Source of the DNA: a virus
Lineage: Duplodnaviria > Heunggongvirae > Uroviricota > Caudoviricetes
Length of the DNA: 64,000 bases
Direction: 5' to 3' (one strand)
IMG/VR virus record: IMGVR_UViG_2529293038_000017
Span: 1 to 64,000 of that record
In this document: positions 2,811 through 64,000 of the stretch, piece after piece
Layout of the letters: each line of letters starts with the position of its first letter
Numbering within the stretch: position 1 is the stretch's first letter
The notes under the pieces: model-generated
The model's input: the letters and a program-made list of their open reading frames with translations, nothing else
Databases searched by the model: none
What the model was told of the DNA's origin: nothing
Program-made: the position numbers and the translations under genes

Positions 2811-3452
2811 ATGGATAAGAAAATATGCGTTGTTTCGATGAGCGTCGGCAAACCGGCGTCAATGACTGCTGCATGGATCAACAACGAGCTGATAATGGCT
2901 GAGCGGACCAGCTACCCTGAACGCCGCCGCGATATGGAACTCCAGTTGCTGCGCGAATTGCGTGAGAAAGAGGAAAAAGGTTTTATCGTGCTGGTGGAAG
3001 AGGAAAACAGCTTTATTACCGGTAGAGTTGGCCAGCGTGTAAGGTTGCGCGATCCCTTCATGAACGGCAGGCCGGTACTAATTGAGGCAATGCAGATTTA
3101 TAAGGAGCTGGAACGCCAGAAAGCAATCAAGTTACCGCGCAAGGAATCCGGCAAATACATCCTCCACCAAAGCATCTTCGATTCCGAACACGACAAAAAA
3201 GGCGATGAATTTTTCAACATCAACTGGAGCGAAATAACGACAGAGCATGTTCTGACGTTACTATGTTGCTTTGCGACGGAATACAACAACGTTGCCAGCG
3301 CAGACTACATCAGGGCAATGGCTGGAGAAGTTGAGGCACGCCAGGAACCATCGTTACTAAGCCCTCTGATTAACATAATTCGCGGAACCCAAACGCTGGC
3401 ACAAAAACAGGTGCCTAAGGGAGTATTAACAGGAAAAGGAAATTATCTATAA
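2811..3452 (+). CDS. mat: Mat-like protein (213 aa)
   Basis: ATG at 2811 with AGGGG Shine-Dalgarno (the ORF-track start at 2784 lies inside the terminator). Position matches P1 mat downstream of ref; identity is from synteny only. Confidence 0.5.
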   Translation: MDKKICVVSMSVGKPASMTAAWINNELIMAERTSYPERRRDMELQLLRELREKEEKGFIVLVEEENSFITGRVGQRVRLRDPFMNGRPVLIEAMQIYKELERQKAIKLPRKESGKYILHQSIFDSEHDKKGDEFFNINWSEITTEHVLTLLCCFATEYNNVASADYIRAMAGEVEARQEPSLLSPLINIIRGTQTLAQKQVPKGVLTGKGNYL

Positions 3453-16119: not shown

Positions 16120-16136
16120 ATTGCTCTAATTAATTT
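16120..16136. promoter_or_regulatory. C1 operator (ATTGCTCTAATTAATTT) upstream of ssb
   Basis: 16/17 match to the C1 operator consensus, about 20 bp upstream of the ssb start. Confidence 0.65.
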
Positions 16137-27142: not shown

Positions 27143-27712
27143 TTACAGCTCAGATTGAGTTTGGCGCTTCTCTACAGGATGATAACGATAAATCGTCGAT
27201 ACACCGATATCGTAAATAATTGCCAACTGTTTCCTGCTGTAGCCATTTTCGATCAACCTCGCTATTTGCTCATGTTGTTCTTTTGTCAACTTCGGGCGAC
27301 GTCCGCCAATGCGTCCCTGTTCGCGTGCAGCTGCCAGTCCGGCCAGTGTTCTCTCAACAATTAATTCACGTTCCATTTCTGCTAAAGCCCCCATGACGTG
27401 AAAAAAGAAACGCCCCATGGGTGTTGATGTGTCAATACTGTCTGTCAGACTACGGAAATTAACACCTTTTTCCCGCAACTCCTCTATAAGCGTGATAAGG
27501 TGTTTCATACTTCTGCCAAGCCTATCCAGCTTCCAGACAACCAGCGTATCTCCTTCTGATAACGTTCTGAGCAGCTTTTTCAAGCCTGGTCTGGCTGACT
27601 TTGTTCCGCTTATTTTATCTTCAAAAATCAGTTCACATCCTGCGCAGTTCAGTGCATTTCTTTGTAAATCTGTGTTTTGGTCATTTGTTGACACACGAAT
27701 GTAGCCAATTTG
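27143..27712 (-). CDS. cin: Cin serine DNA invertase (about 186 aa)
   Basis: MQIGYIRVSTNDQNTDLQ... resolvase/invertase N-terminal catalytic motif and C-terminal HTH (GYSRKQLAIIYDIGVSTIYRY). Adjacent to the invertible segment. Confidence 0.9.
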   Translation of the reverse strand, partial: QIGYIRVSTNDQNTDLQRNALNCAGCELIFEDKISGTKSARPGLKKLLRTLSEGDTLVVWKLDRLGRSMKHLITLIEELREKGVNFRSLTDSIDTSTPMGRFFFHVMGALAEMERELIVERTLAGLAAAREQGRIGGRRPKLTKEQHEQIARLIENGYSRKQLAIIYDIGVSTIYRYHPVEKRQTQSEL

Positions 27713-27769
27713 CATGAAAAACAACCTCTTTGTTTAGTTAAAAATACATCGTTGGTATAGGTAGGGATT

Positions 27770-27795
27770 AAGACTAAAACGTTGGTTTGGGAGAA
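27770..27795. promoter_or_regulatory. cix-like recombination site (AAGACTAAAACG-TT-GGTTTGGGAGAA)
   Basis: Resembles the Gin/Cin crossover-site pattern (AAACC-NN-GGTTT core); sits at the junction where the Sv and Sv' reading frames diverge. Confidence 0.55.
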
Positions 27796-28284
27796 GGCTC
27801 TGCATTACCTGTTGGTGTCCCTGTTCCGTGGCCTTCAGCCACTCCGCCAACAGGCTGGCTGAAATGCAACGGTGCGGCTTTTTCTGCTGAAGAATACCCG
27901 GAACTGGCAAAGGCTTACCCGACAAATAAATTGCCTGATTTACGTGGTGAGTTCATTCGTGGCTGGGATGACGGGCGCGGGATTGATCCAGGTCGCTCTA
28001 TTTTAAGCGAGCAAGGATATGCAACGGAGGATCATGCTCACGGATTACCGTCAAAATCAACCGTAGCAACTGACAGCTCAATTAATTTCTACTTTGACGA
28101 GGCATGGGCTACTAGTGGTAATACGGGAGTTATCAGATGGGGGAACACAAGCGATGCAGGATTGCCAGCCCCTAATTATGGAACTTTTAAAACATATAAA
28201 CAGTCCGTAGCTAATTTAGGTACTGCTGGCTTAGAAACCCGCCCTCGTAATATTGCATTTAATTATATTGTGAGGGCGGATTAA
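27787..28284 (+). CDS. Alternative tail-fibre variable C-terminal segment (Sv'-like, 165 codons), silent in this orientation
   Basis: Open frame beginning at the cix site with no independent start signal. N-terminal 33 residues nearly identical to an internal stretch of the S protein. Confidence 0.6.
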   Translation: MGEGSALPVGVPVPWPSATPPTGWLKCNGAAFSAEEYPELAKAYPTNKLPDLRGEFIRGWDDGRGIDPGRSILSEQGYATEDHAHGLPSKSTVATDSSINFYFDEAWATSGNTGVIRWGNTSDAGLPAPNYGTFKTYKQSVANLGTAGLETRPRNIAFNYIVRAD

Positions 28285-28289
28285 TTATA

Positions 28290-28901
28290 TCAACTGGCTG
28301 TAGAAAGTTGTTTTTCAGGCCAGTTGAGATCTGGTGCCGTGGTTAAATCCATCGCGTTCAGCTCGTCTATATAATCTAGCACGGAGTTAAGCTGCGTGGT
28401 TTCTGCCTGCGTCAACTTCCGTCCAGCCCGTAATTTCAACTGAATCAGACTAATGGAATCCATCGCAGTATCAATCAATGACTGACGTTTTGTTTCTGCT
28501 GCCTCTACAGCTGCACTATGTTGAGCCTCAGTATCAACCACCCATTTCTCTCCATCCCATTTGTCGTATGGTGTTAGCGGGGCGATAGTGGTTGTATTTT
28601 CCGGATAGTCACCCAACACCGTGATTTCTTCGGGATTCCCTGTGTCAATGCTATAGACAGTTTCGCCACGATGATCTGGCACATACTCCCATGAACTTAA
28701 ATCCTCTGAACGGAGAATCGCATAACCTGCTTTATGTGAGCCTGGAGCATCCAAACAAGAATGTGCCGGAATACCAACGCCAACAGCAAGATATTCAGTT
28801 GATGCAGAAATATATTCCCGATTACCACCATCATAGTTATAAACGATAATGTTTCCTGCCTGTATGGCTATAAGTTCGCTATTTAATATCGCATTATCCA
28901 T
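28290..28901 (-). CDS. U: Tail-fibre assembly chaperone (U/Tfa-like, 203 aa)
   Basis: Directly downstream of S; C-terminal region resembles Tfa-family chaperones. Confidence 0.7.
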   Translation of the reverse strand: MDNAILNSELIAIQAGNIIVYNYDGGNREYISASTEYLAVGVGIPAHSCLDAPGSHKAGYAILRSEDLSSWEYVPDHRGETVYSIDTGNPEEITVLGDYPENTTTIAPLTPYDKWDGEKWVVDTEAQHSAAVEAAETKRQSLIDTAMDSISLIQLKLRAGRKLTQAETTQLNSVLDYIDELNAMDLTTAPDLNWPEKQLSTAS

Positions 28902-30580
28902 TATGCTGCTCTCACAATATAATTGAAGGCAATGTTACGTGGGCGGGTTTCATTCCCCCCAGATAACTCCGTTCTGTATTGACTGGTAAATTTACCATTA
29001 ATCGCTCCTTCTTGGACGGCGTTATCTGTCGACAACAGGCTATCCCCCCCTCTGTCATTTGGCACCAATACCGTGTTATCCCACGCGTCCCATGACCGAA
29101 TATTATGATAATGACTTCCTGTTAACCACCCCTGTATGCTTAAGATGACCCTTCCCGCATCCACACCTCGCCCATCATCCCAACCACGGATAAACTCACC
29201 GCGTAAATCAGGTAATTTTAACGTTGGGTAAACCTTTGCCAGATTTGGGTACTTTTCAGAAGAAAATGCTGCTCCGTTACATTTCAGCCACCCCGTTGGT
29301 GGTGTGGCTGAGGGCCATGGAACAGGTACACCAACGGGCAGCGCCGAGCCTTCCCCTAAACCAAGGTAATTAAGAACGCTCTGAATACTGGGCTTACTAA
29401 GAATTGCACGTCCAACACTTGTCAGTGCAGTTAACGCGGCACGATCAACCCCTGTGAAATAAGGGAGTTTATCTGCTGCGGTAGCTAGTGCCGCTAGAGC
29501 AGTGAGCGTAGCGTCTGCCGCTTGCTTTCCATTAGCCAAATCATATGCAGCCTTGACAGCTTTCGGTGTAGCGGCCAGCACTTCAGACGTGCTGTTAGTG
29601 GCACTACTGAGCTGAGTGATGCCTTTCGCTGTCAATGAAGCTGTTGGCACACCAGTAATCTGATTCCAGGGATGTGTATGACTGGATGGTGCCTTTCCGG
29701 CTGCTAGATCGTATGCAGCTTTAACCGCTTTTGGCGTTGCAGCTAATGTTTCAGAAGTGCTGTTGGTGTCGCTACTGAGCTGAACTATCCCTTTTTGTGT
29801 CGTGGTTGCATCCTGGGCTGTATACTTCCCGTTAGCCAGGTCATATGCAGCCTTGACAGCTTTCGGTGTGGCGGCCAGCACTTCAGACGTGCTGTTAGTG
29901 GCACTACTGAGCTGAACTAATCCCTTTTGCGTTGTGCTTGCATCCTGCGCCGTATACTTGCTTTTCGCCAGATCGTAGGCTTTTTTAACTGCCAGCGAAC
30001 TCGCAGCAACATCACTTCTGGTACTGGTTACAGAGTCTGAAATATCAATGCCGATCGTGCGGTTGATACGCTCGGATGTATCAATCATCTCTTGAGTAAT
30101 GGTAGATACGCCAGCAGGGATATTCACCGTACAAACCAGCAGTTCCCCATCACCTAACTGATATGAATCGGTATAGGTTCTGGCAACAAATTCAGCTGCA
30201 TGAATATGTGACGCGGTATTCACCTGATAGGTATCTTCTCCAAGAAGGTATCTTCCCTTCAGCACAATTGCATATTTCTTGCCTGCGTTAAGTGCAAGAG
30301 AGATATCCTTACGATGCTGAATAGTTACCTGGTAGAATTCACCAATATCCACTGACGCCGCGCCAGCGGTTTTATCTCCATCCACTGAGGTGATTAACAG
30401 GTTCATCCCACCGCCAGGCTTAGGCAAGAAACCAGCATAAAATCCCGGGTCAACAATTCCCCTGAATTTTCGGTTTAGAGCGGCTGACAGATATGGTTCG
30501 TGGTATTGCACATCAGCCACCAGAGCCAACGACTCGGGTGATGGGTAAGTAACCGATGTAACAACTGTAACGTCATTCAT
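28901..30580 (-). CDS. S: Tail fibre protein S (about 559 aa)
   Basis: ATG at 30580 with AAGGA Shine-Dalgarno, 12 bp after the R stop. Internal 45-aa tandem repeats; C-terminal part lies inside the invertible segment. Confidence 0.75.
   Translation of the reverse strand: MNDVTVVTSVTYPSPESLALVADVQYHEPYLSAALNRKFRGIVDPGFYAGFLPKPGGGMNLLITSVDGDKTAGAASVDIGEFYQVTIQHRKDISLALNAGKKYAIVLKGRYLLGEDTYQVNTASHIHAAEFVARTYTDSYQLGDGELLVCTVNIPAGVSTITQEMIDTSERINRTIGIDISDSVTSTRSDVAASSLAVKKAYDLAKSKYTAQDASTTQKGLVQLSSATNSTSEVLAATPKAVKAAYDLANGKYTAQDATTTQKGIVQLSSDTNSTSETLAATPKAVKAAYDLAAGKAPSSHTHPWNQITGVPTASLTAKGITQLSSATNSTSEVLAATPKAVKAAYDLANGKQAADATLTALAALATAADKLPYFTGVDRAALTALTSVGRAILSKPSIQSVLNYLGLGEGSALPVGVPVPWPSATPPTGWLKCNGAAFSSEKYPNLAKVYPTLKLPDLRGEFIRGWDDGRGVDAGRVILSIQGWLTGSHYHNIRSWDAWDNTVLVPNDRGGDSLLSTDNAVQEGAINGKFTSQYRTELSGGNETRPRNIAFNYIVRAA
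29341..29366. promoter_or_regulatory. cix-like recombination site inside S (TTCCCCTAAACC-AA-GGTAATTAAGAA)
   Basis: Inverted relative to the site at 27770-27795; marks the constant/variable junction of S. Confidence 0.5.
29510..29990. repeat. Tandem repeats of about 150 bp within the tail-fibre gene (three copies)
   Basis: Identical 80-bp cores at 29541-29620 and 29841-29920, with a diverged middle copy. Encode the repeated peptide TAQDA.TTQKG.VQLSS.TNSTSE.LAATPKAVKAAYDLA. Confidence 0.8.
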
Positions 30581-30591
30581 CAAGCATATCC

Positions 30592-31026
30592 TTATGCTGT
30601 AGTCGAGTTTATGGCCATAACTGCGGTATATGTTTTGCCCACATACAGCGAGTCTTCCTGGACACAAATAATGGCGATTGGCTTATTCTCGTTATCCAGA
30701 ACAACCAGAGTGTTGAATGGGTAGTTTTTCCCTTCCTGCAACTGACTTTGATCAAGGTCCATTCGGACAGTAATTATCCCGCCTGAGTAGGTTGGGACGA
30801 GGTTGATGGTGCAAAATTGACTGGTCAGTTCTGCCAGATCGAAAGCCTTTGGCAGTTCTCCAATCTCATAAGTGCCATCTCCTTTCTTAGTAACCAGTGA
30901 ACTGGTACCGAAAACGGCCTTGCTGATTAAAAATCGAGAGCCTTTGTTAATGGACGATTCAGCGCGCCGCTGATAGTAATAGTCCAACAACTGACTCTTA
31001 TAGAGGTTTGTTGAGACGTCAGACAT
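30592..31026 (-). CDS. R: Tail-fibre/baseplate-associated protein (R-like, 144 aa)
   Basis: Immediately upstream of S in the same operon. Confidence 0.55.
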   Translation of the reverse strand: MSDVSTNLYKSQLLDYYYQRRAESSINKGSRFLISKAVFGTSSLVTKKGDGTYEIGELPKAFDLAELTSQFCTINLVPTYSGGIITVRMDLDQSQLQEGKNYPFNTLVVLDNENKPIAIICVQEDSLYVGKTYTAVMAINSTTA

Positions 31027-31104
31027 GATTTTCCCTAATCAATGTTGTGAAGCCTCATTGTAAGATAAGTAACTTGTCACCCCGCCCTGCGGACGGGGTG
31101 ATTG

Positions 31105-31944
31105 TCACGCATCGCTATCCAACAGCAAATCATCTGCGCGGGTGCGATCAAACGTAGGCGTTGCTTTCACAATAGTGCCGCCCGGCGTTGCAGTGATCGG
31201 GGCGTTAATCGACGTAACTTCAGTAAGCGAAGTTGTATCCGAAGTTTCAAACCAGCAGAATGCTTTTTCGGTATCAGAAATCTCATTCAAAGTGATCATG
31301 TCGGCCTGTTCATTTACAACAACCGACAAATAGAGCGTAAGCCCATCAAACACTATATGCAGTGGCAGTAGAGGCTTTACGAACTGATTAAACTTTCTGA
31401 GAATTTCTTCTGTAATTGCGGACTGATCTATCGTTCCAGTAATACCCATTGTCCGGGCCAGGTCGTTTATGGGAATACTGATCATTCCTCTGGAAGTCAG
31501 AAACATCTCGCCGAATGTGCCGCCGGTGGTTTCCAGTGTGCTTTCTGGAATCAGGACCGTGCCATAGGGATGACGTTCAAAGTCCACCGGAGCATATATT
31601 GGATCCCATAAAACCGATATACCGTTAAATTCGCGATAAATTGTCTGGTTTATAGGGCGTTCAGTACCCTTAAAATGGATCTCATCAAACCGCTGTTGTA
31701 ACAACATCGGAACGGAAGATGAATTCGACGTTCTGATAGTAAAAAACTGGCCAAGTTCATTTGTCCTAGTCTCCAGATCCTCCTTGCTCATGGAGAAAAT
31801 AGACTTCCGGTTGGTAATTCGCTCCAACCATGGGTCAACAAAGGTGTCCATCATTGACTGAACCAAATCAGCCAATGATTTATAAAGTAATGACTTTTGC
31901 TTAGCTGATGTAAGCCGGTTATTAAACCAGGAACGCTGCATCAC
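31105..31944 (-). CDS. Baseplate-associated protein (279 aa)
   Basis: Tail-operon position; stop overlaps the upstream baseplate gene. Confidence 0.55.
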   Translation of the reverse strand: MMQRSWFNNRLTSAKQKSLLYKSLADLVQSMMDTFVDPWLERITNRKSIFSMSKEDLETRTNELGQFFTIRTSNSSSVPMLLQQRFDEIHFKGTERPINQTIYREFNGISVLWDPIYAPVDFERHPYGTVLIPESTLETTGGTFGEMFLTSRGMISIPINDLARTMGITGTIDQSAITEEILRKFNQFVKPLLPLHIVFDGLTLYLSVVVNEQADMITLNEISDTEKAFCWFETSDTTSLTEVTSINAPITATPGGTIVKATPTFDRTRADDLLLDSDA

Positions 31945-33374
31945 TCCTCCTCATACGAAATATTAAAGGTGGAGTTTTCTGTATCCAGATAAACGAAATC
32001 GTAAAAGCCGTTGGACTCATTCCACTCGACAAATTCCAGATAAAAGTCGCGGAAATAACCCAGCGTTTCGATAAATGCCCAAACGTCTTTTTTCTTGATT
32101 AGGATGTACTTGCCGACACGGTTCGGATCAAAGAAAGTTGAGTCACGCCCAAATTTTGTTTCCAGTGCCGACTTCAGCTCATCAGTCACGTTCTCAATGG
32201 TCAGGCTTGCCGATATCCGCCCAGTGATAGTGATCTTAAAGGGGAGTTTTCTGACCTCTTTATACGAGAATTTCTTGTTCAACTCATTCGGCACCTTCTT
32301 AAAGGCAGCCAGGATCACTTCTTCAAGCTCTGACTGGCTTTTGTTTGGATGCCATCCTGAAATAAATATCTTATTGATATTCCGAACATTATAAGCACCA
32401 TCTAATTTCTCTTGCTGGCCTTCGCCCCATGCCTTTACCCAGGACAGTCCCGGGATGTTACGCACCAAAAAATACGTATAGTCCCCGCCCCATACGACCT
32501 GATCATCATAGGCAAGGTAATATTGTGCACGATTACGTGTGATCTCCGTTGTTTCGGCATCGGTACCTGCGGTTATGGGTGTCGTTGTCTTAACTGAAAT
32601 CAAATTAGCTAAATTAGCCGCAGAATCGACAGGCGTCAGGTTTTGGCCAGCAACCAGGGTTATATCTCCGTTGGTGCACCATACCTTAAGTGTAATGGTC
32701 GAGCCTTCTGGCGGTATTTGCCCAATTAGCCCATCACCGAATCGAACCCCCAACTGCTCGGATGGCTTATAAAACTCAACGTAGACCTGGCTTTTACTAC
32801 CGGCTAACCGGAACATAGTGCTGGAAGACCACTGCGTGGTCTTACCATCGGTCGTCACGAATACTTCCAGCTTATAGCAGACAGCAGTGAGAGCCTTTGA
32901 TAACACGACTTCCAGAAATTCTTTGGCTGCCGTAACGGTATATGTCACCTCCTGGATTTCCAACTGTGCCACTTCTACCGTACCGGTGCCGTCAACCAAC
33001 CTGCATACATCCATAGTCATGTAAGGGTACTGGTCGTCAGATATTAAAGGCATATTTTTGGGGATTACCGCTGGGGCATCTTCACTTGTGGCGGTGATCT
33101 CAATCATCCCCGATGACGGTGTTGGCTTGGTACCAACGTAACTATTCGTTTCTGCCGCTGCCAGGATAGAGGAACGCCGCGTCGCGGTCGATATAAAGCC
33201 TTCAGCCAGCGCCGCATCGGCATACTGAAAGCACCTGTAGACAATCTGGGTAATAAACAATGTCAGCATCGAGACAAATTGAGAGCCGACAAACTTCGAC
33301 CAGAATGAATCTTTCTCGACAAGCTCTTCAAACTCTGCACGAATACTGTCTTTAGTCGGTGTTGTTTTACTCAT
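31941..33374 (-). CDS. Baseplate protein (477 aa), bplA-like
   Basis: Size and position within the tail/baseplate operon; translationally coupled to neighbours. Confidence 0.6.
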   Translation of the reverse strand: MSKTTPTKDSIRAEFEELVEKDSFWSKFVGSQFVSMLTLFITQIVYRCFQYADAALAEGFISTATRRSSILAAAETNSYVGTKPTPSSGMIEITATSEDAPAVIPKNMPLISDDQYPYMTMDVCRLVDGTGTVEVAQLEIQEVTYTVTAAKEFLEVVLSKALTAVCYKLEVFVTTDGKTTQWSSSTMFRLAGSKSQVYVEFYKPSEQLGVRFGDGLIGQIPPEGSTITLKVWCTNGDITLVAGQNLTPVDSAANLANLISVKTTTPITAGTDAETTEITRNRAQYYLAYDDQVVWGGDYTYFLVRNIPGLSWVKAWGEGQQEKLDGAYNVRNINKIFISGWHPNKSQSELEEVILAAFKKVPNELNKKFSYKEVRKLPFKITITGRISASLTIENVTDELKSALETKFGRDSTFFDPNRVGKYILIKKKDVWAFIETLGYFRDFYLEFVEWNESNGFYDFVYLDTENSTFNISYEEE

Positions 33375-33730
33375 AGCACCACGTCCTGTGTGATAGTTAT
33401 ATCCCTGATACGAATGGATATTTTCAACTTATCAAAAGCATCTCCCTCGGCTACTGACAAGCCAGAAATCGGTATGTCAGGTAAATCTACCGTCAGTTTT
33501 TGCAACAGCATTGCCTCAACCGCAATTTGAACATGCGACAAGTTGGTCGGTTCGTGTTTAAACTGCGGTAAAACATTGCCCCATGACGGATCTCCGTATA
33601 CCTCACCCTGATAAGTGTTTAGCCACTCATATAAACGAGCGCCCCAGGCCTCCTCCTGGGACTCATACGTTTTTACGCCGGATAACTCCAGCGTCAGCAA
33701 AGGATCAATTTCGTTATTGTTGGCCATCAA
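33371..33730 (-). CDS. Small baseplate protein (119 aa), gpW/gp25-like
   Basis: Size and position immediately downstream of the Sit-like gene. Confidence 0.5.
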   Translation of the reverse strand: MMANNNEIDPLLTLELSGVKTYESQEEAWGARLYEWLNTYQGEVYGDPSWGNVLPQFKHEPTNLSHVQIAVEAMLLQKLTVDLPDIPISGLSVAEGDAFDKLKISIRIRDITITQDVVL

Positions 33731-36717
33731 TCAACTCTCGCGTAGTCATTCATCAACGGATCATCAATTGACAGTGGTACCGTGCGCATAACGCCCGGCT
33801 GAGGCGTGCTGACCTTTACGACAGTTCCCTGGCCTTTCGCCGAGTCTTTGGTGTGCTCTTCAATCCTGGCAAGCAATGAGGTCATCTGCGCAAACAGCCG
33901 CTTCGTTTCACCATCAAGTGAAACGGTATTATCAGCCAACTGCATTGTCGGCTTGGCACCGGAACCGCCAAGGTCACTAATAACCTGCCCGTCTATCTGC
34001 ATACGACCGGTTGGTTGCTGCAAATCGTTGGCGGCAGTCGTCACCTGGGACGTGGAGGCTGGTTCAGGCGCATTATTTTTCCGCATCCCCGGCGAGTTGC
34101 GGAGTTTATCGAATAGTCCATCAATCCCCATTTGTGCGCCGAGATGGTCAAAGTAACTTGAGTTGTTGGCCACCGGACGCGCCTCTTCAACTGGCATCGG
34201 AGTATCAACATACACATTGCCAGCTGCTGTTGCGGTCCCCTTCTCTCGTGCACGTTCTTCTAGCGTTCCCTGAACGACTTCCCGACGCATCCCCCGGCCA
34301 TTCATGAATTTGTTGACCAGATCGTTAACGCCAACAGCATTGCCGATTTTGTCGACCAGACCGCCTTTCTCAAACGGGCTATCACCAGGGGTAAACGCCA
34401 GGCCAGTATACTGATCGATAACAGCGTTATCAGGCAGTGGTCCCCTCACTCCATATTGCGCCCCACCCTGTGCTCCTGCTCCAGGTGTATAGATTTCACC
34501 ACCTAAATAGCGAGCACGATGAGTATTGACCTTGATCGCGTACTCACGGTTTTCTTTCGATAAGTCACCGGTGCCTTTTTTCCACTTATTAATAGTGCCA
34601 AACCCAGCATTATATGCAGTGATGGCCTCGTTTAAGTCTCCATTGGCTTGCTTAAGATACTTGCTCATGAGAAGAGCCGCAGCTTCTGCCGATTTCACAG
34701 GATCAAACGATTCACCTTCAGCTAAGCCAGTCTCTTCACGAGCAATCCCCGTGAACTGAAACATCCCCAGAGCACCGGTTTGGGATTTTGCATACGGATT
34801 ACCACCAGATTCAGTTGCAGCAATCGCGTAAAGAGTGCCTTCTGGAAGACCGTATTTATTCTCTAGTTCGGCAAAATACGGAGCCAACTTATCGAGATTT
34901 GCCTTACCTTCAGCGCCAAGACTTCCGACTTTTACATCTAAGTTGCCATTGTTGTAAGTATCCGCAGCTTTCTGAATGTCATTCCTGGTGCCAGTGGTAT
35001 TAAGCGACGATGATGACGAGCTATTTTGACCAATAGCTTTATCAATTTTCTGCAACGCGCTATTGCCCGTTTCTACGGCATTTGCATTGATAATCTGATT
35101 GGCAGTTTGTTTAACTGTTTTATTGCTATCTTTCGCTGTGTCCAGTGCCGCATTTATCACGCGGGTAGCAATATTACTCTGTTTGGCATCGGATTCAGTT
35201 TTAGAATCAGACGTCTCCTGGTGGCTATTAACCGGAGCTTTTAACTCCGGAGTGATTTCTTTCGCATTAGCCTCGCCGATCGGATTGGGTATTTTTGATA
35301 CAATCATTGCCGCAGGGGTATTTTTAACGGCATCAACCGCTGCATCTAATGCTTTACCAGGTAAATTTTTAACCCCATCCCAAATATTACCAGCCGCCTC
35401 TTTAATGTGTTTCCCTGGGTTCTTAATGAAATCAATTGCACTATCAATTGCATCACTGAAAACCTGTTTCAGGTTATCAACAGTAAAGAAGTCTTTGATG
35501 GCATCCAGCTTTTCAAGCAGCTTATTAGATGTATCGCTAAACCATGCTGAAACAGCATCACCAATCTTTGCTGTGTAATCTTCGAACTTGGTAGAAATGG
35601 TGTCGCCAAGGTTAGAAATATATGTTTCTAAGTTGGTAATCCCACTATCAATGGCCTGGGCAATACTTTCCGTCGAAAATGATTGCAACATATTGCCGAT
35701 ATCCTCAAATCCAAGTGATTTGAGAACCTCACCAATGGCGCTGCTAATACCAGATACCAGTCCCCCCATATCAAGAACATTGGCTAACGTATAAGCGGCT
35801 TTTTGCTGGAATGATGGCTCTTGTCCTGATTTAAGCCCAAACGCTCGACGTTGCGCTTCTGTATCATTCCAACCGGTTACCGCATCATAAATACCTCCAG
35901 CCACTGTGCCGACTAAGGGAATTGCGCGTAACGCCCCTTTACCAACTGCCTTTAATCCAAATTTACCTGCTGCCCGGGCAGCCAAATCTCCACCTTCATG
36001 GGCGATAGTCTTCTTGCCACCACCGCGTAGCATTCCTACAAGTTTCTTTGCCCCCAGAGCGCCAAAAGCGAGTGCTCCAGCTTTTTTCAGCATGCCACGC
36101 CCCATTAACAACGACGCGACGCCACCGGCCCCCTTCCCTAACAGGCTAAATAGTTTGGACAGCAAGCCGCCCTTCTTTTTCCCGGTGTTTTTGGCTATCT
36201 GATCAAGGGCGCTGAGAATCTTGTCATTGCCCTCTTTAATTTCGCTGGTCTGCTCCTGAAGTTCCTGAACCGTCCGTTTTTGGGTGTTAACCTGAACGAC
36301 ATCGGCACTATTTTGCGATTTACGCCTAAAAAAACCTTTTCTACGGCTGTTATCGTCATTGCCACGAATCACATCGGCAATAGACTTTCTGGCGCCATTA
36401 AGCGATCCACCAACTTCTTTTGATATCCCGCCAAGCTCCTTCCCTGCTGCCCACAATGGACCAGCAACGGCATAACCTAACGCATCGACGGCACGAGTCT
36501 CTGAAGGGTTACCTATGCCTTCAGCTACTTTTGACAGTTTTTTTAATAAACCTGATTCAGCATTTAGACGCTCATCATCCTCTTTGCGCCTGGCCTTTTC
36601 AGCACGTTCAGCACGGGCATCTTCCGCTGCGGCCTTACTCCCTGACTTTCCAATAAAACGACCACGCGCATCGCGTTGGTTTTGGCTTTTTTGCGCACCG
36701 CCTTTTTGATCGAACAT
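33727..36717 (-). CDS. sit: Sit-like tape-measure / structural injection transglycosylase (996 aa as annotated)
   Basis: Lytic transglycosylase motif (AIAATESGGNPYAKSQTGALGMFQF), Gly/Ala/Lys-rich low-complexity regions, no Shine-Dalgarno at the annotated ATG. Confidence 0.75.
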   Translation of the reverse strand: MFDQKGGAQKSQNQRDARGRFIGKSGSKAAAEDARAERAEKARRKEDDERLNAESGLLKKLSKVAEGIGNPSETRAVDALGYAVAGPLWAAGKELGGISKEVGGSLNGARKSIADVIRGNDDNSRRKGFFRRKSQNSADVVQVNTQKRTVQELQEQTSEIKEGNDKILSALDQIAKNTGKKKGGLLSKLFSLLGKGAGGVASLLMGRGMLKKAGALAFGALGAKKLVGMLRGGGKKTIAHEGGDLAARAAGKFGLKAVGKGALRAIPLVGTVAGGIYDAVTGWNDTEAQRRAFGLKSGQEPSFQQKAAYTLANVLDMGGLVSGISSAIGEVLKSLGFEDIGNMLQSFSTESIAQAIDSGITNLETYISNLGDTISTKFEDYTAKIGDAVSAWFSDTSNKLLEKLDAIKDFFTVDNLKQVFSDAIDSAIDFIKNPGKHIKEAAGNIWDGVKNLPGKALDAAVDAVKNTPAAMIVSKIPNPIGEANAKEITPELKAPVNSHQETSDSKTESDAKQSNIATRVINAALDTAKDSNKTVKQTANQIINANAVETGNSALQKIDKAIGQNSSSSSSLNTTGTRNDIQKAADTYNNGNLDVKVGSLGAEGKANLDKLAPYFAELENKYGLPEGTLYAIAATESGGNPYAKSQTGALGMFQFTGIAREETGLAEGESFDPVKSAEAAALLMSKYLKQANGDLNEAITAYNAGFGTINKWKKGTGDLSKENREYAIKVNTHRARYLGGEIYTPGAGAQGGAQYGVRGPLPDNAVIDQYTGLAFTPGDSPFEKGGLVDKIGNAVGVNDLVNKFMNGRGMRREVVQGTLEERAREKGTATAAGNVYVDTPMPVEEARPVANNSSYFDHLGAQMGIDGLFDKLRNSPGMRKNNAPEPASTSQVTTAANDLQQPTGRMQIDGQVISDLGGSGAKPTMQLADNTVSLDGETKRLFAQMTSLLARIEEHTKDSAKGQGTVVKVSTPQPGVMRTVPLSIDDPLMNDYARVD

Positions 36718-40910: not shown

Positions 40911-40927
40911 AATGCTCTAATAAATTT
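40911..40927. promoter_or_regulatory. C1 operator (AATGCTCTAATAAATTT), Op51-like, controlling the immI operon
   Basis: 16/17 match to the operator consensus upstream of the c4-icd-ant region. Confidence 0.65.
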
Positions 40928-42574: not shown

Positions 42575-42591
42575 TTTGCTCTAATAAATTT
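42575..42591. promoter_or_regulatory. C1 operator (TTTGCTCTAATAAATTT), Op53-like, upstream of kilA
   Basis: 16/17 consensus match about 70 bp upstream of kilA. Confidence 0.65.
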
Positions 42592-57221: not shown

Positions 57222-57238
57222 ATTGCTCTAATAAATAT
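57222..57238. promoter_or_regulatory. C1 operator (ATTGCTCTAATAAATAT), Op68-like, upstream of uhr/hrdC/dmt
   Basis: 16/17 consensus match. Confidence 0.65.
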
Positions 57239-58492: not shown

Positions 58493-60507
58493 AAGAGCTG
58501 TGCTATGGATCTGTTTGCAGTGGAATTGAAGCCGCGAGTATTGCCTGGGAACCGTTGGGTATGCGTCCGGCGTGGTTTGCTGAAATCGAGCCTTTTCCAT
58601 CTGCCGTTCTTGCGCACCGCTGGCCCCATGTCGCCAACCTTGGCGACATGACAAAACTTGCCAAAAAAGTCCTGGCTGGGGAAATCGAATCCCCTGATGT
58701 GCTCGTCGGGGGTACGCCTTGTCAGGCATTCAGTATCGCGGGCTTACGTGGTGGGCTTGATGATGAACGCGGCGCGCTAACTTTGAAGTATGTGGAGCTT
58801 GCAAATGCAATTGACGACAAACGGTCTGAGTCCTTCCTCAAACCGACAGTTATCGTCTGGGAAAATGTCCCAGGAGTCCTGTCATCGGCAGATAACGCCT
58901 TCGGATGTTTCCTTGCCGGATTGGCTGGAGAAGATGCGCCATTTGAACCAGGTGATCGACCTGAATCAGGAAAAAGTAACGCGTTCTGGCGGTGGGATGG
59001 CAAAACCGGTTGCCATGCTCCAAAGTGGCCGCAGTGTGGTTGTATTTATGGACCGCAGCGAAAGGTGGCCTGGAGAATCCTTGATGCCCAATACTTCGGA
59101 GTGGCACAACGACGCCGACGCGTGTTTGTTGTCGCAAGTGCTCGAACAGACCTCGATCCCGCAACGGTACTTTTTGAGTTCGAAGGCGTGCGCCGGAATA
59201 TTGCGCCGAGCAGAGGCGAGGGGAAGGAAACTACCAGATATACTTCAAACATCGCTATCAGATCTTGCGATGATACAAACATAGTTGCCATGGCACATGG
59301 GCAAGGAGGGGCTGAGATAAAAACCGATAATTCGGCACCAACTTTGACATGTAACCATGAAGCACCAATTGTATTGCTCGTCGACGGTAGAATGCGCCGT
59401 CTTATCCCTGTCGAATGTGAAAGGCTGCAAGGTTTTCCTGATGGACATACATTGATCCCTACGGAAAAGCGTAAAAAAGTTTCTTCAGATGAACTGGCAT
59501 ACCTTCGCAAAAACTATCCTGATTTGAGCGAAGAAGAGGCCGCGATGCTTGCAGCTGACGGACCGCGTTACAAAGCGATCGGCAATAGTATGGCGATACC
59601 AGTAATGCGCTGGATTGGCGATCGGATTGCCAAGGCTGCATGTCGGCAGAAGGAAGGGAGTGAAACAAAAGAGCGAAAAGTTAAACCAGCGGCAGAATTC
59701 GAACGGTCCATATTCAAATGGGCTGGTGGAAAATTTGGTGTTCTGGAACAAATCTTTCGCTATTTGCCAGAAGGGAAGCGCCTGATTGAGCCTTTCGTTG
59801 GTGGCGGAGCTGTCTTCATGAATGCCGGATACCAGGAAAATCTGCTAAATGATGTGAATGCTGACCTGATTAACTTTTACAAGACTCTGCAACGCGAGGC
59901 GCATTCACTTATCACTCTGGCACATCGTTTCTTCCAGGACTACAACACGCAGGAAGGATACCTGGCAGTACGGAATGCGTTTAACAAACAAGTCTATGAT
60001 GATTTACATCGCGCAGCGGCGTTTTTGTTCCTGAACCGACATTGTTTTAACGGATTGACGCGTTACAACCAAGCCGGTGAGTTCAATGTCGGTTATGGGA
60101 AGTATAAAACTCCGTATTTCCCATTGCAGGAGATGGAAGCCTTCCTTGGTGCGGAAGGGCGTTCTGAGTTTGTATGTGGTGATTTTGCTGCGGTGATTGA
60201 AGCTGCCGGAGAAGGAGATGTCATCTTTTGCGATCCGCCGTATGAACCGCTCCCAAATACAGAGGGATTCACGAACTATTCCGGTCATGACTTTAAGTTT
60301 GAAGAGCAAAAACGCCTGGCGTCTCTGTTGACGGATGCTCATCGCCGAGGTGCAAAGGTTCTCATTACTAACAGTGGCGCGCCAAACATCAGAGAACTTT
60401 ATCAGGACAGTGGCTTCAGAGTGGAACCTCTTTTTGCCAGACGTTCTGTGTCTTGTAAGGGGGACACTCGAGGTGTTGCTCATGACGTTATAGCAATATT
60501 GCTCTAA
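58489..60507 (+). CDS. dmt: Bifunctional DNA methyltransferase Dmt: N-terminal C5-cytosine MTase fused to C-terminal Dam-like N6-adenine MTase (672 aa)
   Basis: GTG start overlapping the hrdC stop. m5C motifs [12 protein letters not shown] and WENVPGV; Dam-like motifs [19 protein letters not shown] and DPPY. Confidence 0.9.
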
Positions 60508-60514
60508 TAAATTT
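60498..60514. promoter_or_regulatory. C1 operator (ATTGCTCTAATAAATTT), Op72-like
   Basis: Perfect 17/17 consensus, overlapping the dmt stop codon. Confidence 0.7.
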
Positions 60515-60691
60515 ATTAGTGTAATATCGCCTCAATGAATCGTGATTTATAGAGCGATTTAGCTGTTAGCCGCGACAGGCGCGGCGGCAAGTATGGCGGG
60601 GTAGTGACTCCTTCCCCCTCATGACGCCGAGTTGCCAGGTTGACCATACGCCTAAGTGGCAACACCGAAGTGCGTTACGAGCTTCCAGTTT

Positions 60692-60717
60692 GCCCATCTT
60701 CGGGTGGGCGTTTTTTT
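60692..60717 (+). terminator. Rho-independent terminator
   Basis: GCCCATC-TTCG-GGTGGGC followed by G and a T7 run. Confidence 0.75.
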
Positions 60718-61182
60718 CAGGGTTTTCGTCATGGTTAGCGACTTTGCGGCGGTTTAGAAACTGACCATTAAAGTAAATGCAAACGATGATCTGATGATGG
60801 TAGCGGCCTAAGAAGCCAGACGCCACGGGGTATGAGTCGTCCCCCGTCAAAAAATCGACCGCAGAGTGTCCCCGTCTGTGTATTAGGGAACGGGGAGGCA
60901 CAACAGGTAAGGGCGCTGGTGTGATTAACCAGATGAACGAGAAGGGGCCATCTGTTGGTCAGCGTCCTTTCCTGTTGCGTCTTCTTTTCAGCGTAACAGC
61001 GGTGCTTAACAGCACTTTGGGTACAGTTCCACGAATTTACGGGTATATCCCGTCATGCTGAAAGCGCTAATCACGCTGGAAGCCAGGGTTATGCATCCCC
61101 TGTTACCGAATTGCAGCCAGGGCGCGGTGCGCCGAAAAGCATACGGAGGTGGAAGCCCTCGCCGGAGACGTACCCGGCAAGT

Positions 61183-61258
61183 GATGGTGTAGCTCAGCGG
61201 TTAGAGCGGTTGACTGTTAATCAACGGGTCGATGGTTCAAATCCATCCACCATCGCCA
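61183..61258 (+). tRNA. tRNA-Asn (anticodon GTT)
   Basis: Manual cloverleaf: acceptor GATGGTG/CACCATC, D-arm GCTC-AGCGGTTA-GAGC, anticodon arm GTTGA-CTGTTAA-TCAAC, T-arm GATGG-TTCAAAT-CCATC, encoded CCA. Confidence 0.9.
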
Positions 61259-61260
61259 AT

Positions 61261-61336
61261 GCCGGTTTAGCTCAGTTGGTAGAGCGCCTGCCTTGTAAGC
61301 AGGATGTCAGCGGTTCGAGTCCGTTAATCGGCACCA
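61261..61336 (+). tRNA. tRNA-Thr (anticodon TGT)
   Basis: Manual cloverleaf: acceptor GCCGGTT/AATCGGC, anticodon arm CCTGC-CTTGTAA-GCAGG, T-arm AGCGG-TTCGAGT-CCGTT, encoded CCA. Confidence 0.9.
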
Positions 61337-61340
61337 GCAC

Positions 61341-61447
61341 AACAGGTAAGGGTATTTTGCGACGTCGGAGATCGCCGAGCTTGGCAGAGGGTTCGAATCC
61401 CTACGAAGTACCCTTACCGTTGTGATGAATGCGCAGGCTGATGCGCG
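61341..61447 (+). repeat. Hairpin module a: tRNA-like pseudo-element with canonical T-arm
   Basis: 10-bp stem GGTAAGGGTA/TACCCTTACC enclosing GGTTCGAATCC, followed by conserved tail GTGATGAATGCGCAGGCTGATGCGC. No full cloverleaf could be folded. Confidence 0.5.
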
Positions 61448-61549
61448 AAAGACATTGCAGCTATTGCGGAAAAGAGCTGTTCGGCGGGGCAATTAAACGC
61501 CCGTGAGAGTCTGAAATAACCGCAAGCCGGAGATCAGCACCGGTCATCA

Positions 61550-61632
61550 CAACACAACAGGTAAGGGCATTCTCCCTTATGGGGCTTGGCTTAAATGCAT
61601 CGAGTGCTCTTACCGTTGTGATGAAGTGCAGC
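61550..61632 (+). repeat. Hairpin module b
   Basis: Stem CAACAGGTAAGGGCATTC / GAGTGCTCTTACCGTTG, then tail TGATGAAGTGCAGC. Confidence 0.5.
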
Positions 61633-61759
61633 TCTTTGAAGCAACCAGAAGATAAGCATCTGGCTTCACAACATAAACCGCAGGAACGACCAATAAACGG
61701 TAGTCCGTATGGAGAACACCCCGTTGAGGAAGAGGCCTGGCCGGAACCGTAACCGGCAC

Positions 61760-61877
61760 TACAACGTTGAGAACACTGGCGTAACGGGGTCATATCCCAA
61801 TCTACGAATAAATGTTGCGTTGCAGCGTGACAACCAGTGTTCTCAACATTGTGGTGAATGCACAGGCTGATGTGCCG
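61760..61877 (+). repeat. Hairpin module c
   Basis: 18-bp stem CAACGTTGAGAACACTGG / CCAGTGTTCTCAACATTG. Tail hairpin GCACA-GGCTGA-TGTGC shows compensatory changes relative to module a. Confidence 0.5.
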
Positions 61878-62035
61878 CAACTACAGTAGTGCGCGCTTTG
61901 CGGGGCTTGCTACAACCCTGTGTCGGAGTTCAGCACCGACCATCACAGTTTGATTCTCTGGCATGAGCATAACGCTGAAATAAGTCCAGCCTGGTGCGGC
62001 CCGATCACCCGCCGTTAGCTCCACGAAACGGAGCA

Positions 62036-62138
62036 CGTAACAGGTAAGAGCATTCTCCTGTAACGGGTTCATATCCCAATCTACAGGTCCACCAAGAATG
62101 CTCTTTCCGTTGCGGTGAATGCGGCTAAGCGCACGCGG
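62036..62138 (+). repeat. Hairpin module d
   Basis: Stem AACAGGTAAGAGCATTC / GAATGCTCTTTCCGTTG enclosing GGGTTCATATCCCAATCTACAGG, then tail GGTGAATGCGGC. Confidence 0.5.
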
Positions 62139-62264
62139 GGAAATGGTTATATCAGTCCATTCATTTCTCCTTGTTTCCCCGTCCACGGTGGATAACCAGC
62201 CAAAGGACACCGGGAGGCACCCGGCACCGCAGCTTTTTTATTCGTTAAATAATGGAGTGAGAGG

Positions 62265-64000
<1,736 letters not shown>

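Follow-up and report, generated by a model that had tools for sequence, protein, structure and literature searches.

A conserved structured RNA domain, homologous to the region upstream of DicF, in the probable C1-repressed leader of the P1/P7 ban operon

Introduction

The control region of the ban operon in the phage-plasmids P1 and P7 is textbook P1 biology and already annotated in GenBank. The P1 record (NC_005856/AF234172) holds a divalent operator, Obanab (formerly Op72ab), with the note 'controls expression of ban', and also lists the sigma-70 promoters P2ban and P1ban, a 'dicF-like region' and, following it, trnA, trnT, further genes and ban; the P7 record (NC_050152) agrees, the same operator controlling ban and the tRNAs. 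Here we analyse the corresponding region of a 64,000-nucleotide stretch of viral DNA (Caudoviricetes; IMG/VR record IMGVR_UViG_2529293038_000017, positions 1 to 64,000; referred to as the window), which belongs to a P1-like phage-plasmid. Within the segment 60498-60717, between a C1 operator and an intrinsic terminator, we find a conserved structured RNA domain, here termed the pre-DicF domain, which is homologous to the sequence immediately upstream of DicF in Qin-type prophages. What this adds to a known locus is the correction of the 'dicF-like' label and the membership of the leader in an undescribed, widespread RNA family.

Between the window and the P1/P7 control region there is no essential difference: the operator pair and the promoter hexamers are identical, and the terminator, tRNA-Asn and tRNA-Thr are the same. 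The put sites of phage HK022 and the Bacillus EAR element resemble the domain: they too are structured RNAs in a promoter-proximal position of an early or long operon, upstream of terminators that have to be passed, and EAR, about 120 nt long, likewise contains a pseudoknot and lies within an operon. Towards put, however, the domain shows no homology; put has a two-stem architecture, each phage carries one copy of the domain, and antitermination by the domain is hypothetical. P1 and P7 themselves encode a further small structured non-coding RNA in a C1-related regulatory circuit, the C4 antisense RNA of immI, and the CCA end of pre-C4 matters for its cleavage by RNase P. A UCCA past the closing helix of P1-type copies of the domain recalls this end, but location and fold differ, and no Rfam C4 or c4-a1b1 match of weight was obtained (best 9.4 bits, E 5.7, for the Qin copy).

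With the DicF locus of Qin (ydfABC-dicF-dicB; Rfam RF00039) the P1/P7 leader shares the upstream domain of about 125 nt, at about 82% identity and with the same helices and pseudoknot. Both loci lie in an early repressor-controlled operon, both have a hairpin and a U-tract after the domain, and both carry a second short patch of homology before the next open reading frame (ORF), which is STnc100-like and located at 62111-62231 in the window. Unlike Qin, P1 and P7 have neither the DicF body nor its ftsZ-pairing loop in the leader, and a terminator and tRNA module stand in their place; the domain has its own predicted promoter about 27 nt upstream, whereas the Qin domain is found about 1 kb inside its operon. 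Which segment of DicF base-pairs with the ribosome-binding site of ftsZ has been described (PMC5069750).

Homology to the region upstream of DicF

A sensitive BLAST search with positions 60528-60725 against 5426 complete E. coli genomes returned two groups of matches. Most of the query was recovered in 493 of these genomes, corresponding to P1-like plasmids, and 4411 contained an approximately 82% identical match to positions 60570-60667 only. In the prophages of K-12 and enterohaemorrhagic E. coli (EHEC) the latter match lies between ydfC and dicB (positions 3001-3097 of locus L003) and in Qin ends 25 nt 5' of mature DicF as defined by Rfam (L003 3122-3173). As seen in the alignment, P1 and P7 share the stretch in front of DicF and diverge from Qin afterwards, with the homology ending near 60683; window positions 60561-60683 are thus homologous to a domain of about 125 nt immediately 5' of DicF in Qin-type prophages (Qin L003 2987-3112).

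The STnc100-like patch adds a second syntenic element, shared by the P1 ban leader with the untranslated region of dicBF. It was matched at 37.8 bits (threshold 47) and includes a 28-nt stretch of which 26 positions are identical to the spacer between dicF and dicB in Qin. In sequence, the P1 ban leader looks like a dicBF-type untranslated region with a terminator and tRNA module in the place of DicF.

Copies of the domain were gathered from viral contigs, annotated phages and E. albertii, and range over phages of Escherichia, Shigella and Salmonella. A scan of a 596-Gb genome collection with the 16-mer CAGGTTGACCATRCGC, which is too short a word and gives chance matches, contributed the E. 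albertii locus (L014) as the only real one. The covariance model R1, built from lambdoid and P1-type copies, matches window positions 60556-60689 with 100.2 bits (E about 1e-30, model positions 1-127); as the window sequence is among the 31 training rows of R1, this score is partly circular, and independent evidence comes from the homology to Qin seen by BLAST. In each phage R1 detects one copy. A second copy, analogous to putR, was sought with the same model and not found, and there is none in the rightward operon; a weak match on the minus strand at 29187-29315 (14.2 bits, E 0.018 on a rough calibration) is probably noise.

We found no description of the domain in the literature searched, in which publications on DicF place the region in a 'long untranslated region'. 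The domain is an undescribed, widespread RNA family with covariation support and without an Rfam family.

Conserved fold and covariation

The conserved fold comprises a closing helix, three hairpins (H1, H2 and H3) and a 6-bp pseudoknot between the H1/H2 junction and the H3 loop (Table 1). H1, H2, H3 and the pseudoknot are all formed in the window, with a single A-A mismatch in H3 (60630 with 60664). A prior reading made from the sequence alone (hereafter the sequence-only reading) had pointed out a GC-rich hairpin, GCCGCG-ACAGG-CGCGGC, in the interval between operator and terminator. This hairpin is real, lies at 60569-60585 and corresponds to H1, which is only one of four helices plus the pseudoknot.

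In a MAFFT alignment of 31 copies, which was not fitted to the structure, 91.7% of the pair cells are paired, compared with 34-52% when the partners are slid. For 42 diverse copies on a model-fitted alignment, which leans towards the structure but with which the unfitted alignment agrees, the corresponding values are 94.0% and 34-51%. Across these 42 copies, 18 of the 33 pairs show changes in both partners, where shuffles give 7.5 +/- 1.7 and none of 500 attains 18; the covariation score is 0.195, against 0.118 in shuffles. At least one double change occurs in every helix and in the pseudoknot.

The pseudoknot pair U60592-A60648 covaries, being U-A in 36 copies, C-G in three and U-G in three; the C-G form is found in P1 and the lambdoid copy L342, the intermediate U-G in L189. 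Compensated variants of H1 (CCGCG/CGCGG to CCGCA/UGCGG in L295) and of H3 (GGGUUGUCA/UGACAACCC to GAGCUACCA/UGGUAGCUC in L284, GGAUCACCA/UGGUGAUCC in L302 and GUUGCCA/UGGCAAC in P1 and P7) were likewise observed. H2 occurs as GGGG/CCCC, CUGGG/CCCAG, CAGGUG/CACCUG and GGGU/ACCC, and differs by a compensated change between P1 (CUGGG..CCCAG) and P7 and the window (GGGG..CCCC), the window carrying the P7-type allele of both H2 and the pseudoknot. The loop and junction sequences of the domain are nearly invariant.

Table 1. Features of the leader region in window coordinates. Positions in the extracted segment L001 were converted by adding 57899.
Feature	Position	Strand	Sequence or structure	Basis
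C1 operator Op72a / Oban-a	60498-60514 (L001 2599-2615)	+	ATTGCTCTAATAAATTT	Exact consensus match; position of the protein_bind feature in NC_005856
C1 operator Op72b / Oban-b	60509-60525 (L001 2610-2626)	-	ATTACACTAATAAATTT, 15 of 17 consensus positions	Consensus match; also found as palindrome
Promoter P1ban (predicted)	60499-60527	+	-35 TTGCTC 60499-60504; -10 TAATAT 60522-60527	Transferred from NC_005856; sequence identical
Promoter P2ban (predicted)	60482-60513	+		NC_005856 annotation
Pre-DicF domain	60561-60683	+	Conserved structured RNA domain	Model R1, pair counts, homology to Qin
Closing helix (weak)	60561-60568 with 60675-60683	+	AGCUGUUA with UUACGAGCU	Conserved fold
H1	60569-60574 with 60580-60585	+		95.7% of cells paired
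H2	60598-60601 with four of five C at 60614-60618	+	GGGG with CCCC	Conserved fold
H3	60629-60637 with 60657-60665	+	19-nt loop	Conserved fold
Pseudoknot, 6 bp	60591-60596 with 60644-60649	+	GUAUGG (H1/H2 junction) with CCAUAC (H3 loop)	98.8% of cells paired
Intrinsic terminator	60692-60717	+	7-bp stem, UUCG loop, G and U7	Predicted 3' end of the leader
tRNA-Asn	61183-61258	+		ARAGORN, Rfam, operator note of P7
tRNA-Thr	61261-61336	+		ARAGORN, Rfam, operator note of P7

Comparison with DicF and other RNA families

The 'dicF-like' label in the P1 annotation covers the 3' part alone (about window 60625-60727), and the fold is not mentioned there. The DicF model RF00039 gave no match at E values up to 1 in 59500-62600, and none at E values up to 10 in a 196-nt search of 60530-60725; the DicF genes of Qin and EHEC are scored at 76.7 bits with the same Rfam library, the threshold for membership being 48 bits. 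The DicF loop GUUUUACUCCG, which pairs with the ftsZ ribosome-binding site CGGAGAGAAAC, is absent from the window leader. The duplex of 60666-60717 with ftsZ positions -70 to +30 was calculated at -25.6 kcal/mol, and 181 of 200 shuffles were as good or better. RNAduplex is crude when applied to whole RNAs, as it ignores intramolecular structure, and DicF itself ranked only 8th of 35 start regions; the test therefore shows merely that P1 has no special complementarity to ftsZ. An identification of the leader as DicF was rejected on these grounds. To judge from the sequence, the P1 label is misleading and wrong in substance, because the leader possesses neither the DicF sequence nor the ftsZ-pairing loop.

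The Rfam scan that the sequence-only reading had suggested as a check yielded no family for the domain, in E-value and gathering-threshold scans and with both the P1 and the Qin form. Matches in the leader stayed far below threshold (nuoG, 21.6 bits against 33; RyhB, AgvB and isrB, 11-16 bits), no riboswitch family was matched, and ARAGORN and the Rfam tRNA and tmRNA models did not recognise the domain. A coding explanation was rejected for both strands, in agreement with the earlier remark that the interval holds no convincing ORF: the three overlapping ORFs present (111, 47 and 49 aa) are without a Pfam match, and the copies of the domain are 123-134 nt long and fall into all three classes modulo 3, so its conservation is not due to a coding frame.

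Genomic context and the adjacent hairpin

In lambdoid phages the domain is located in the early-left operon, adjoining the repressor gene. It is found about 300 nt past PL in phage Ayreon, directly past dicA in phage vB_Apl-pPE4 (pPE4), past one small ORF in F1055 and roughly 1 kb inside the operon of Qin. Of 167 distinct loci, 164 have a hairpin and T-run 39-99 nt past the H3 loop; these hairpins belong to at least eight sequence classes, among them canonical DicF, DicF-shaped hairpins with different loops, short seedless hairpins (E. albertii type) and the P1 form; in the window, 8 nt separate the closing helix from the terminator stem. As the domain is constant and the 3' hairpin variable, the constant unit consists of domain, hairpin and U-tract, and the DicF loop is one among several variable inserts. 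In pPE4 (L245 2590-2760), which is labelled an Actinobacillus phage and is nearly identical in this region to E. coli lambdoid prophages, the 3' small-RNA hairpin occurs as a tandem duplicate and the 5' closing arm of the domain is lost.

Operators, promoters and terminator of the leader

The region 60498-60717 probably comprises the promoter-operator of the P1/P7 ban operon, repressed by C1, together with the 5' leader. The segment is 99.4% identical to P7 and about 88% identical to P1, with flanks about 97% identical to P1. The promoters, the membership of the operon and the control of the tRNAs and ban by the operator are adopted as putative from the annotation of the records.

The sequence ATTGCTCTAATAAATTT at 60498-60514 is the sole copy of the C1 consensus without mismatch in the window. 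C1-like sites with up to three mismatches number nine, compared with 0.29 expected from shuffles, and none of 100 shuffles reaches nine. As the dmt ORF ends at 60507, its stop codon TAA (60505-60507) lies inside the operator, and the sequence-only reading was right in describing a perfect C1 operator overlapping the dmt stop. It had missed the second operator at 60509-60525, which is inverted relative to Op72a and overlaps it to form the divalent operator, as well as the identity of the site with the known ban promoter-operator and the structured RNA family linked to DicF loci. Four further C1-operator-like sites with one mismatch each were noted at 16120-16136, 40911-40927, 42575-42591 and 57222-57238, the last a short distance upstream of the operon whose last gene is dmt.

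The hexamers of P1ban and P2ban, transferred from the annotation and with predicted activity, are situated inside or adjacent to the operator pair. P1ban was not picked up by a simple consensus promoter scan because its -35 hexamer is weak. Given the position of the -10 hexamer, transcription would be expected to start near 60534.

The strong intrinsic terminator proposed earlier for 60692-60717 is borne out. Its stem arms GCCCATC (60692-60698) and GGTGGGC (60703-60709) enclose a TTCG loop and are followed by a G and T7 (60711-60717); the stem consists of four G-C pairs, one A-U, one G-U and one C-G closing pair, each formed with a probability of 0.96-0.97 in the fold of the 187-nt leader. The hairpin is conserved in P1, P7 and phage D6, in which the leader upstream is unrelated. 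A terminator pattern scan by itself, which is blind to the long-loop hairpins in Ayreon, was not above chance, with two overlapping calls compared with 1.1 +/- 1.0 in shuffles. In P1, no strong terminator-like site other than that of the leader lies on the plus strand between P1ban and ban; additional terminators inside the P1 operon, which would have called for processive antitermination, were sought, and none of weight was found.

From 60689 on, the sequence (terminator, 460-nt spacer, tRNA-Asn and tRNA-Thr) is common to phage D6. The D6 leader (L250 1390-1490) contains a long hairpin, AAGAAAGAAGCCGACU...AGUCGGCUUCUUUCUU, and seems to serve the same cargo as an alternative leader module. The annotated control of the tRNAs and ban by the operator implies that some polymerases pass the terminator. 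According to a preprint on the P1vir transcriptome, ban is the only replication gene raised in an hfq mutant, and trnA is raised as well (bioRxiv 10.64898/2025.12.28.696737); both are located behind the leader terminator, and their rise is circumstantial.

Proposed course of transcription and role of the domain

This analysis establishes the two operators, the terminator, the homology and the RNA fold. In a lysogen, C1 bound to the divalent operator would cover both P1ban and P2ban. On derepression, RNA polymerase would start near 60534 and first transcribe the domain of about 125 nt at 60561-60683, which would fold on the nascent chain into three hairpins locked by the 6-bp pseudoknot; 8 nt past the domain, the polymerase would meet the strong intrinsic terminator. 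Terminated transcripts would constitute a discrete, highly structured RNA of about 184 nt (approximately 60534 to 60717), and read-through transcripts would carry tRNA-Asn, tRNA-Thr and, further on, ban. To judge from the arrangement of these elements, derepression most likely gives both the terminated leader RNA and read-through transcripts. The sequence-only reading had proposed either a short C1-repressed transcript or an attenuated leader; the leader part stands, given that in the P1/P7 annotation the operator controls ban and the tRNAs, and for the short transcript the sequence fits a predicted product of about 184 nt.

Several points weigh against this account. The start site, the 184-nt product and the read-through fraction are inferred, and the operon membership of ban is taken from record annotation. 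The free-energy z-score of the leader is modest (-1.98); folding energy alone being weak evidence, the case for the structure rests on covariation. The closing helix is weak in P1-type copies, where AGCUGUUA pairs with UUAC(G)AGCU in 4 + 2 bp, interrupted by a bulge and by a U-U mismatch, and the alignment register differs, compared with the 8-9 bp by which the helix enclosing the three hairpins is defined; in some lambdoid copies it is absent (pPE4, L131 and L168 are without the 5' arm), so it may not be needed. Phage D6 retains the terminator and tRNAs behind an unrelated leader, and the terminator module therefore works without the domain.

Being widespread and kept beside at least eight different hairpins in two phage types, the domain probably contributes to the making of early phage operon transcripts, of DicF-type small RNAs and of the P1 tRNA/ban transcripts. 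It is found in most E. coli genomes, and the two types of phage concerned are unrelated. Our preferred reading, which we hold tentatively and as somewhat short of probable, is that it acts in cis on the outcome at the adjacent hairpin, termination or processing taken together. This role is favoured because the position directly before a terminator-type hairpin is the one feature kept in every context. A further reading can be entertained with less conviction: the domain may represent a new phage cis-regulatory RNA class, common to lambdoid early-left operons and the ban operons of P1 and P7, which decides what becomes of the transcript at the adjacent hairpin, be it termination or read-through, or the release of a small RNA. 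If this were true, DicF, after 35 years of study, would turn out to be no more than the variable 3' part of a larger conserved RNA, one that about 80% of E. coli genomes possess. For a test, P1 would be the cleanest system, combining a repressible promoter of its own with the domain, a single terminator and an easily measured cargo.

Among the alternatives, which include specific versions of this cis role, the one that fares best, though rather unlikely, is a platform for biogenesis or stability, in which the domain directs or protects processing by RNase E, RNase III or RNase P and thereby frees the 3' hairpin as an Hfq-type small RNA; its P1 version would be what is left of a DicF-type locus, or would shield the leader against decay. 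The constancy of the domain next to a varied 3' hairpin (at least eight classes), always within tens of nucleotides, speaks for such a platform, as does a U-rich GUUUG 5' of the hairpin in DicF-type and P1-type copies alike. The 5' end of DicF is generated by RNase E cleavage of the operon transcript (PMC9438474, PMC5069750), and the cleavage site falls into the linker just past the domain. This fits the lambdoid loci. The P1 hairpin, however, is a plain terminator without a seed-bearing loop, beside which the domain is nevertheless intact, with compensated changes between the P1 and P7 alleles, and this points to a role that does not depend on a DicF-type small RNA.

It is unlikely that the domain is a processive antiterminator in the manner of HK022 put or Bacillus EAR, modifying its own polymerase so that transcription passes the terminator and extends to the tRNAs and ban of P1 or, in lambdoid phages, to dicB, kil and exo. 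Its location is compatible with this function: it is promoter-proximal in early operons (about 27 nt past the presumed start in P1, about 300 nt past PL in Ayreon) and always just 5' of a terminator with co-oriented genes beyond. In four phages or prophages, the ORFs lying between PL and the domain yielded no match to an N-type or other known antiterminator, and nearly invariant loops and junctions would be expected for partner contacts. Against it, R1 run without filters found no match in the HK022 early region that holds putL and putR (27600-34000, best 5.7 bits), and put is built differently, of two stems in about 70 nt (PMC9378689). The occurrence of a single copy per phage, with none in the rightward operon, also speaks against antitermination, as do the reported termination at the DicF hairpin, which is efficient enough to make the 53-nt DicF, and the lack of further strong terminators downstream in P1.

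Equally unlikely is a trans-acting structured RNA, the terminated leader of about 184 nt itself being an early product that binds or mimics a host component. In outline the fold resembles a cloverleaf. H3 continues directly from the closing helix, and base pairing between the junction and the loop of H3 recalls the tRNA elbow; the topology is that of a four-way junction with a loop-junction tertiary pair. The primary terminated transcript of P1 would be little more than the domain, UCCA stands directly past the closing helix in P1-type copies, and real tRNAs and tRNA-like repeats come later in the same operon; that ban and trnA are the exceptions raised in the hfq mutant of P1vir (bioRxiv 10.64898/2025.12.28.696737) may be counted here as well. 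The tRNA resemblance is topological only, however; ARAGORN and the Rfam tRNA and tmRNA models fail to recognise the domain, and the CCA past the closing helix is not conserved in lambdoid copies.

Still less probable is an attenuator that senses a factor or ligand, with the folding of the pseudoknotted domain deciding on terminator formation. The layout is riboswitch-like, with a structured domain and a terminator 8 nt on, and in the nascent fold without the 3' arm of the terminator GGCAAG (60586-60591) pairs with UUUGCC (60689-60694), an interaction that would rival the pseudoknot as well as the stem of the terminator. This alternative pairing comprises only 6 bp including one G-U, is weaker in P1 (GGUAAG) and is missing from DicF-type copies, and its target occurs in D6 too, a phage without the domain; moreover, the terminator forms with a probability of 0.97 in the full leader, and no Rfam riboswitch was matched. 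That the leader is a functional DicF homologue, an antisense RNA blocking ftsZ translation and cell division on induction, is very improbable given the absence of a DicF match (none at E up to 10 over 196 nt, compared with 76.7 bits for Qin) and of the ftsZ-pairing loop and the shuffle-level pairing with ftsZ (181 of 200), even with the 'dicF-like' annotation, the shared position behind the same upstream domain and the neighbouring tciA, tciB and tciC annotated as possible division inhibitors.

Further features of the region

The sequence GCACAACAGGTAAGGG occurs three times in the window, at 60898-60913, 61337-61352 and 61552-61567. Past tRNA-Thr, an array at 61337-62136 is made up of repeat units of about 200-280 nt, each a long hairpin (for example, 61345-61357 with 61406-61418), some of which bear the T-arm-like motifs GGGTTCGAATCCC or GGGTTCATATCCC. 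The array overlaps the 'plp' and 'upl' ORFs predicted in P1 on the opposite strand, and its length varies among P1-like phages; the units may be tRNA-like and non-coding rather than genes. Just past the leader/tRNA region a pair of ORFs is inserted on the minus strand (62504-63936; 260 aa and at least 217 aa), which by eye resemble IstB and IstA of an IS21-family element.

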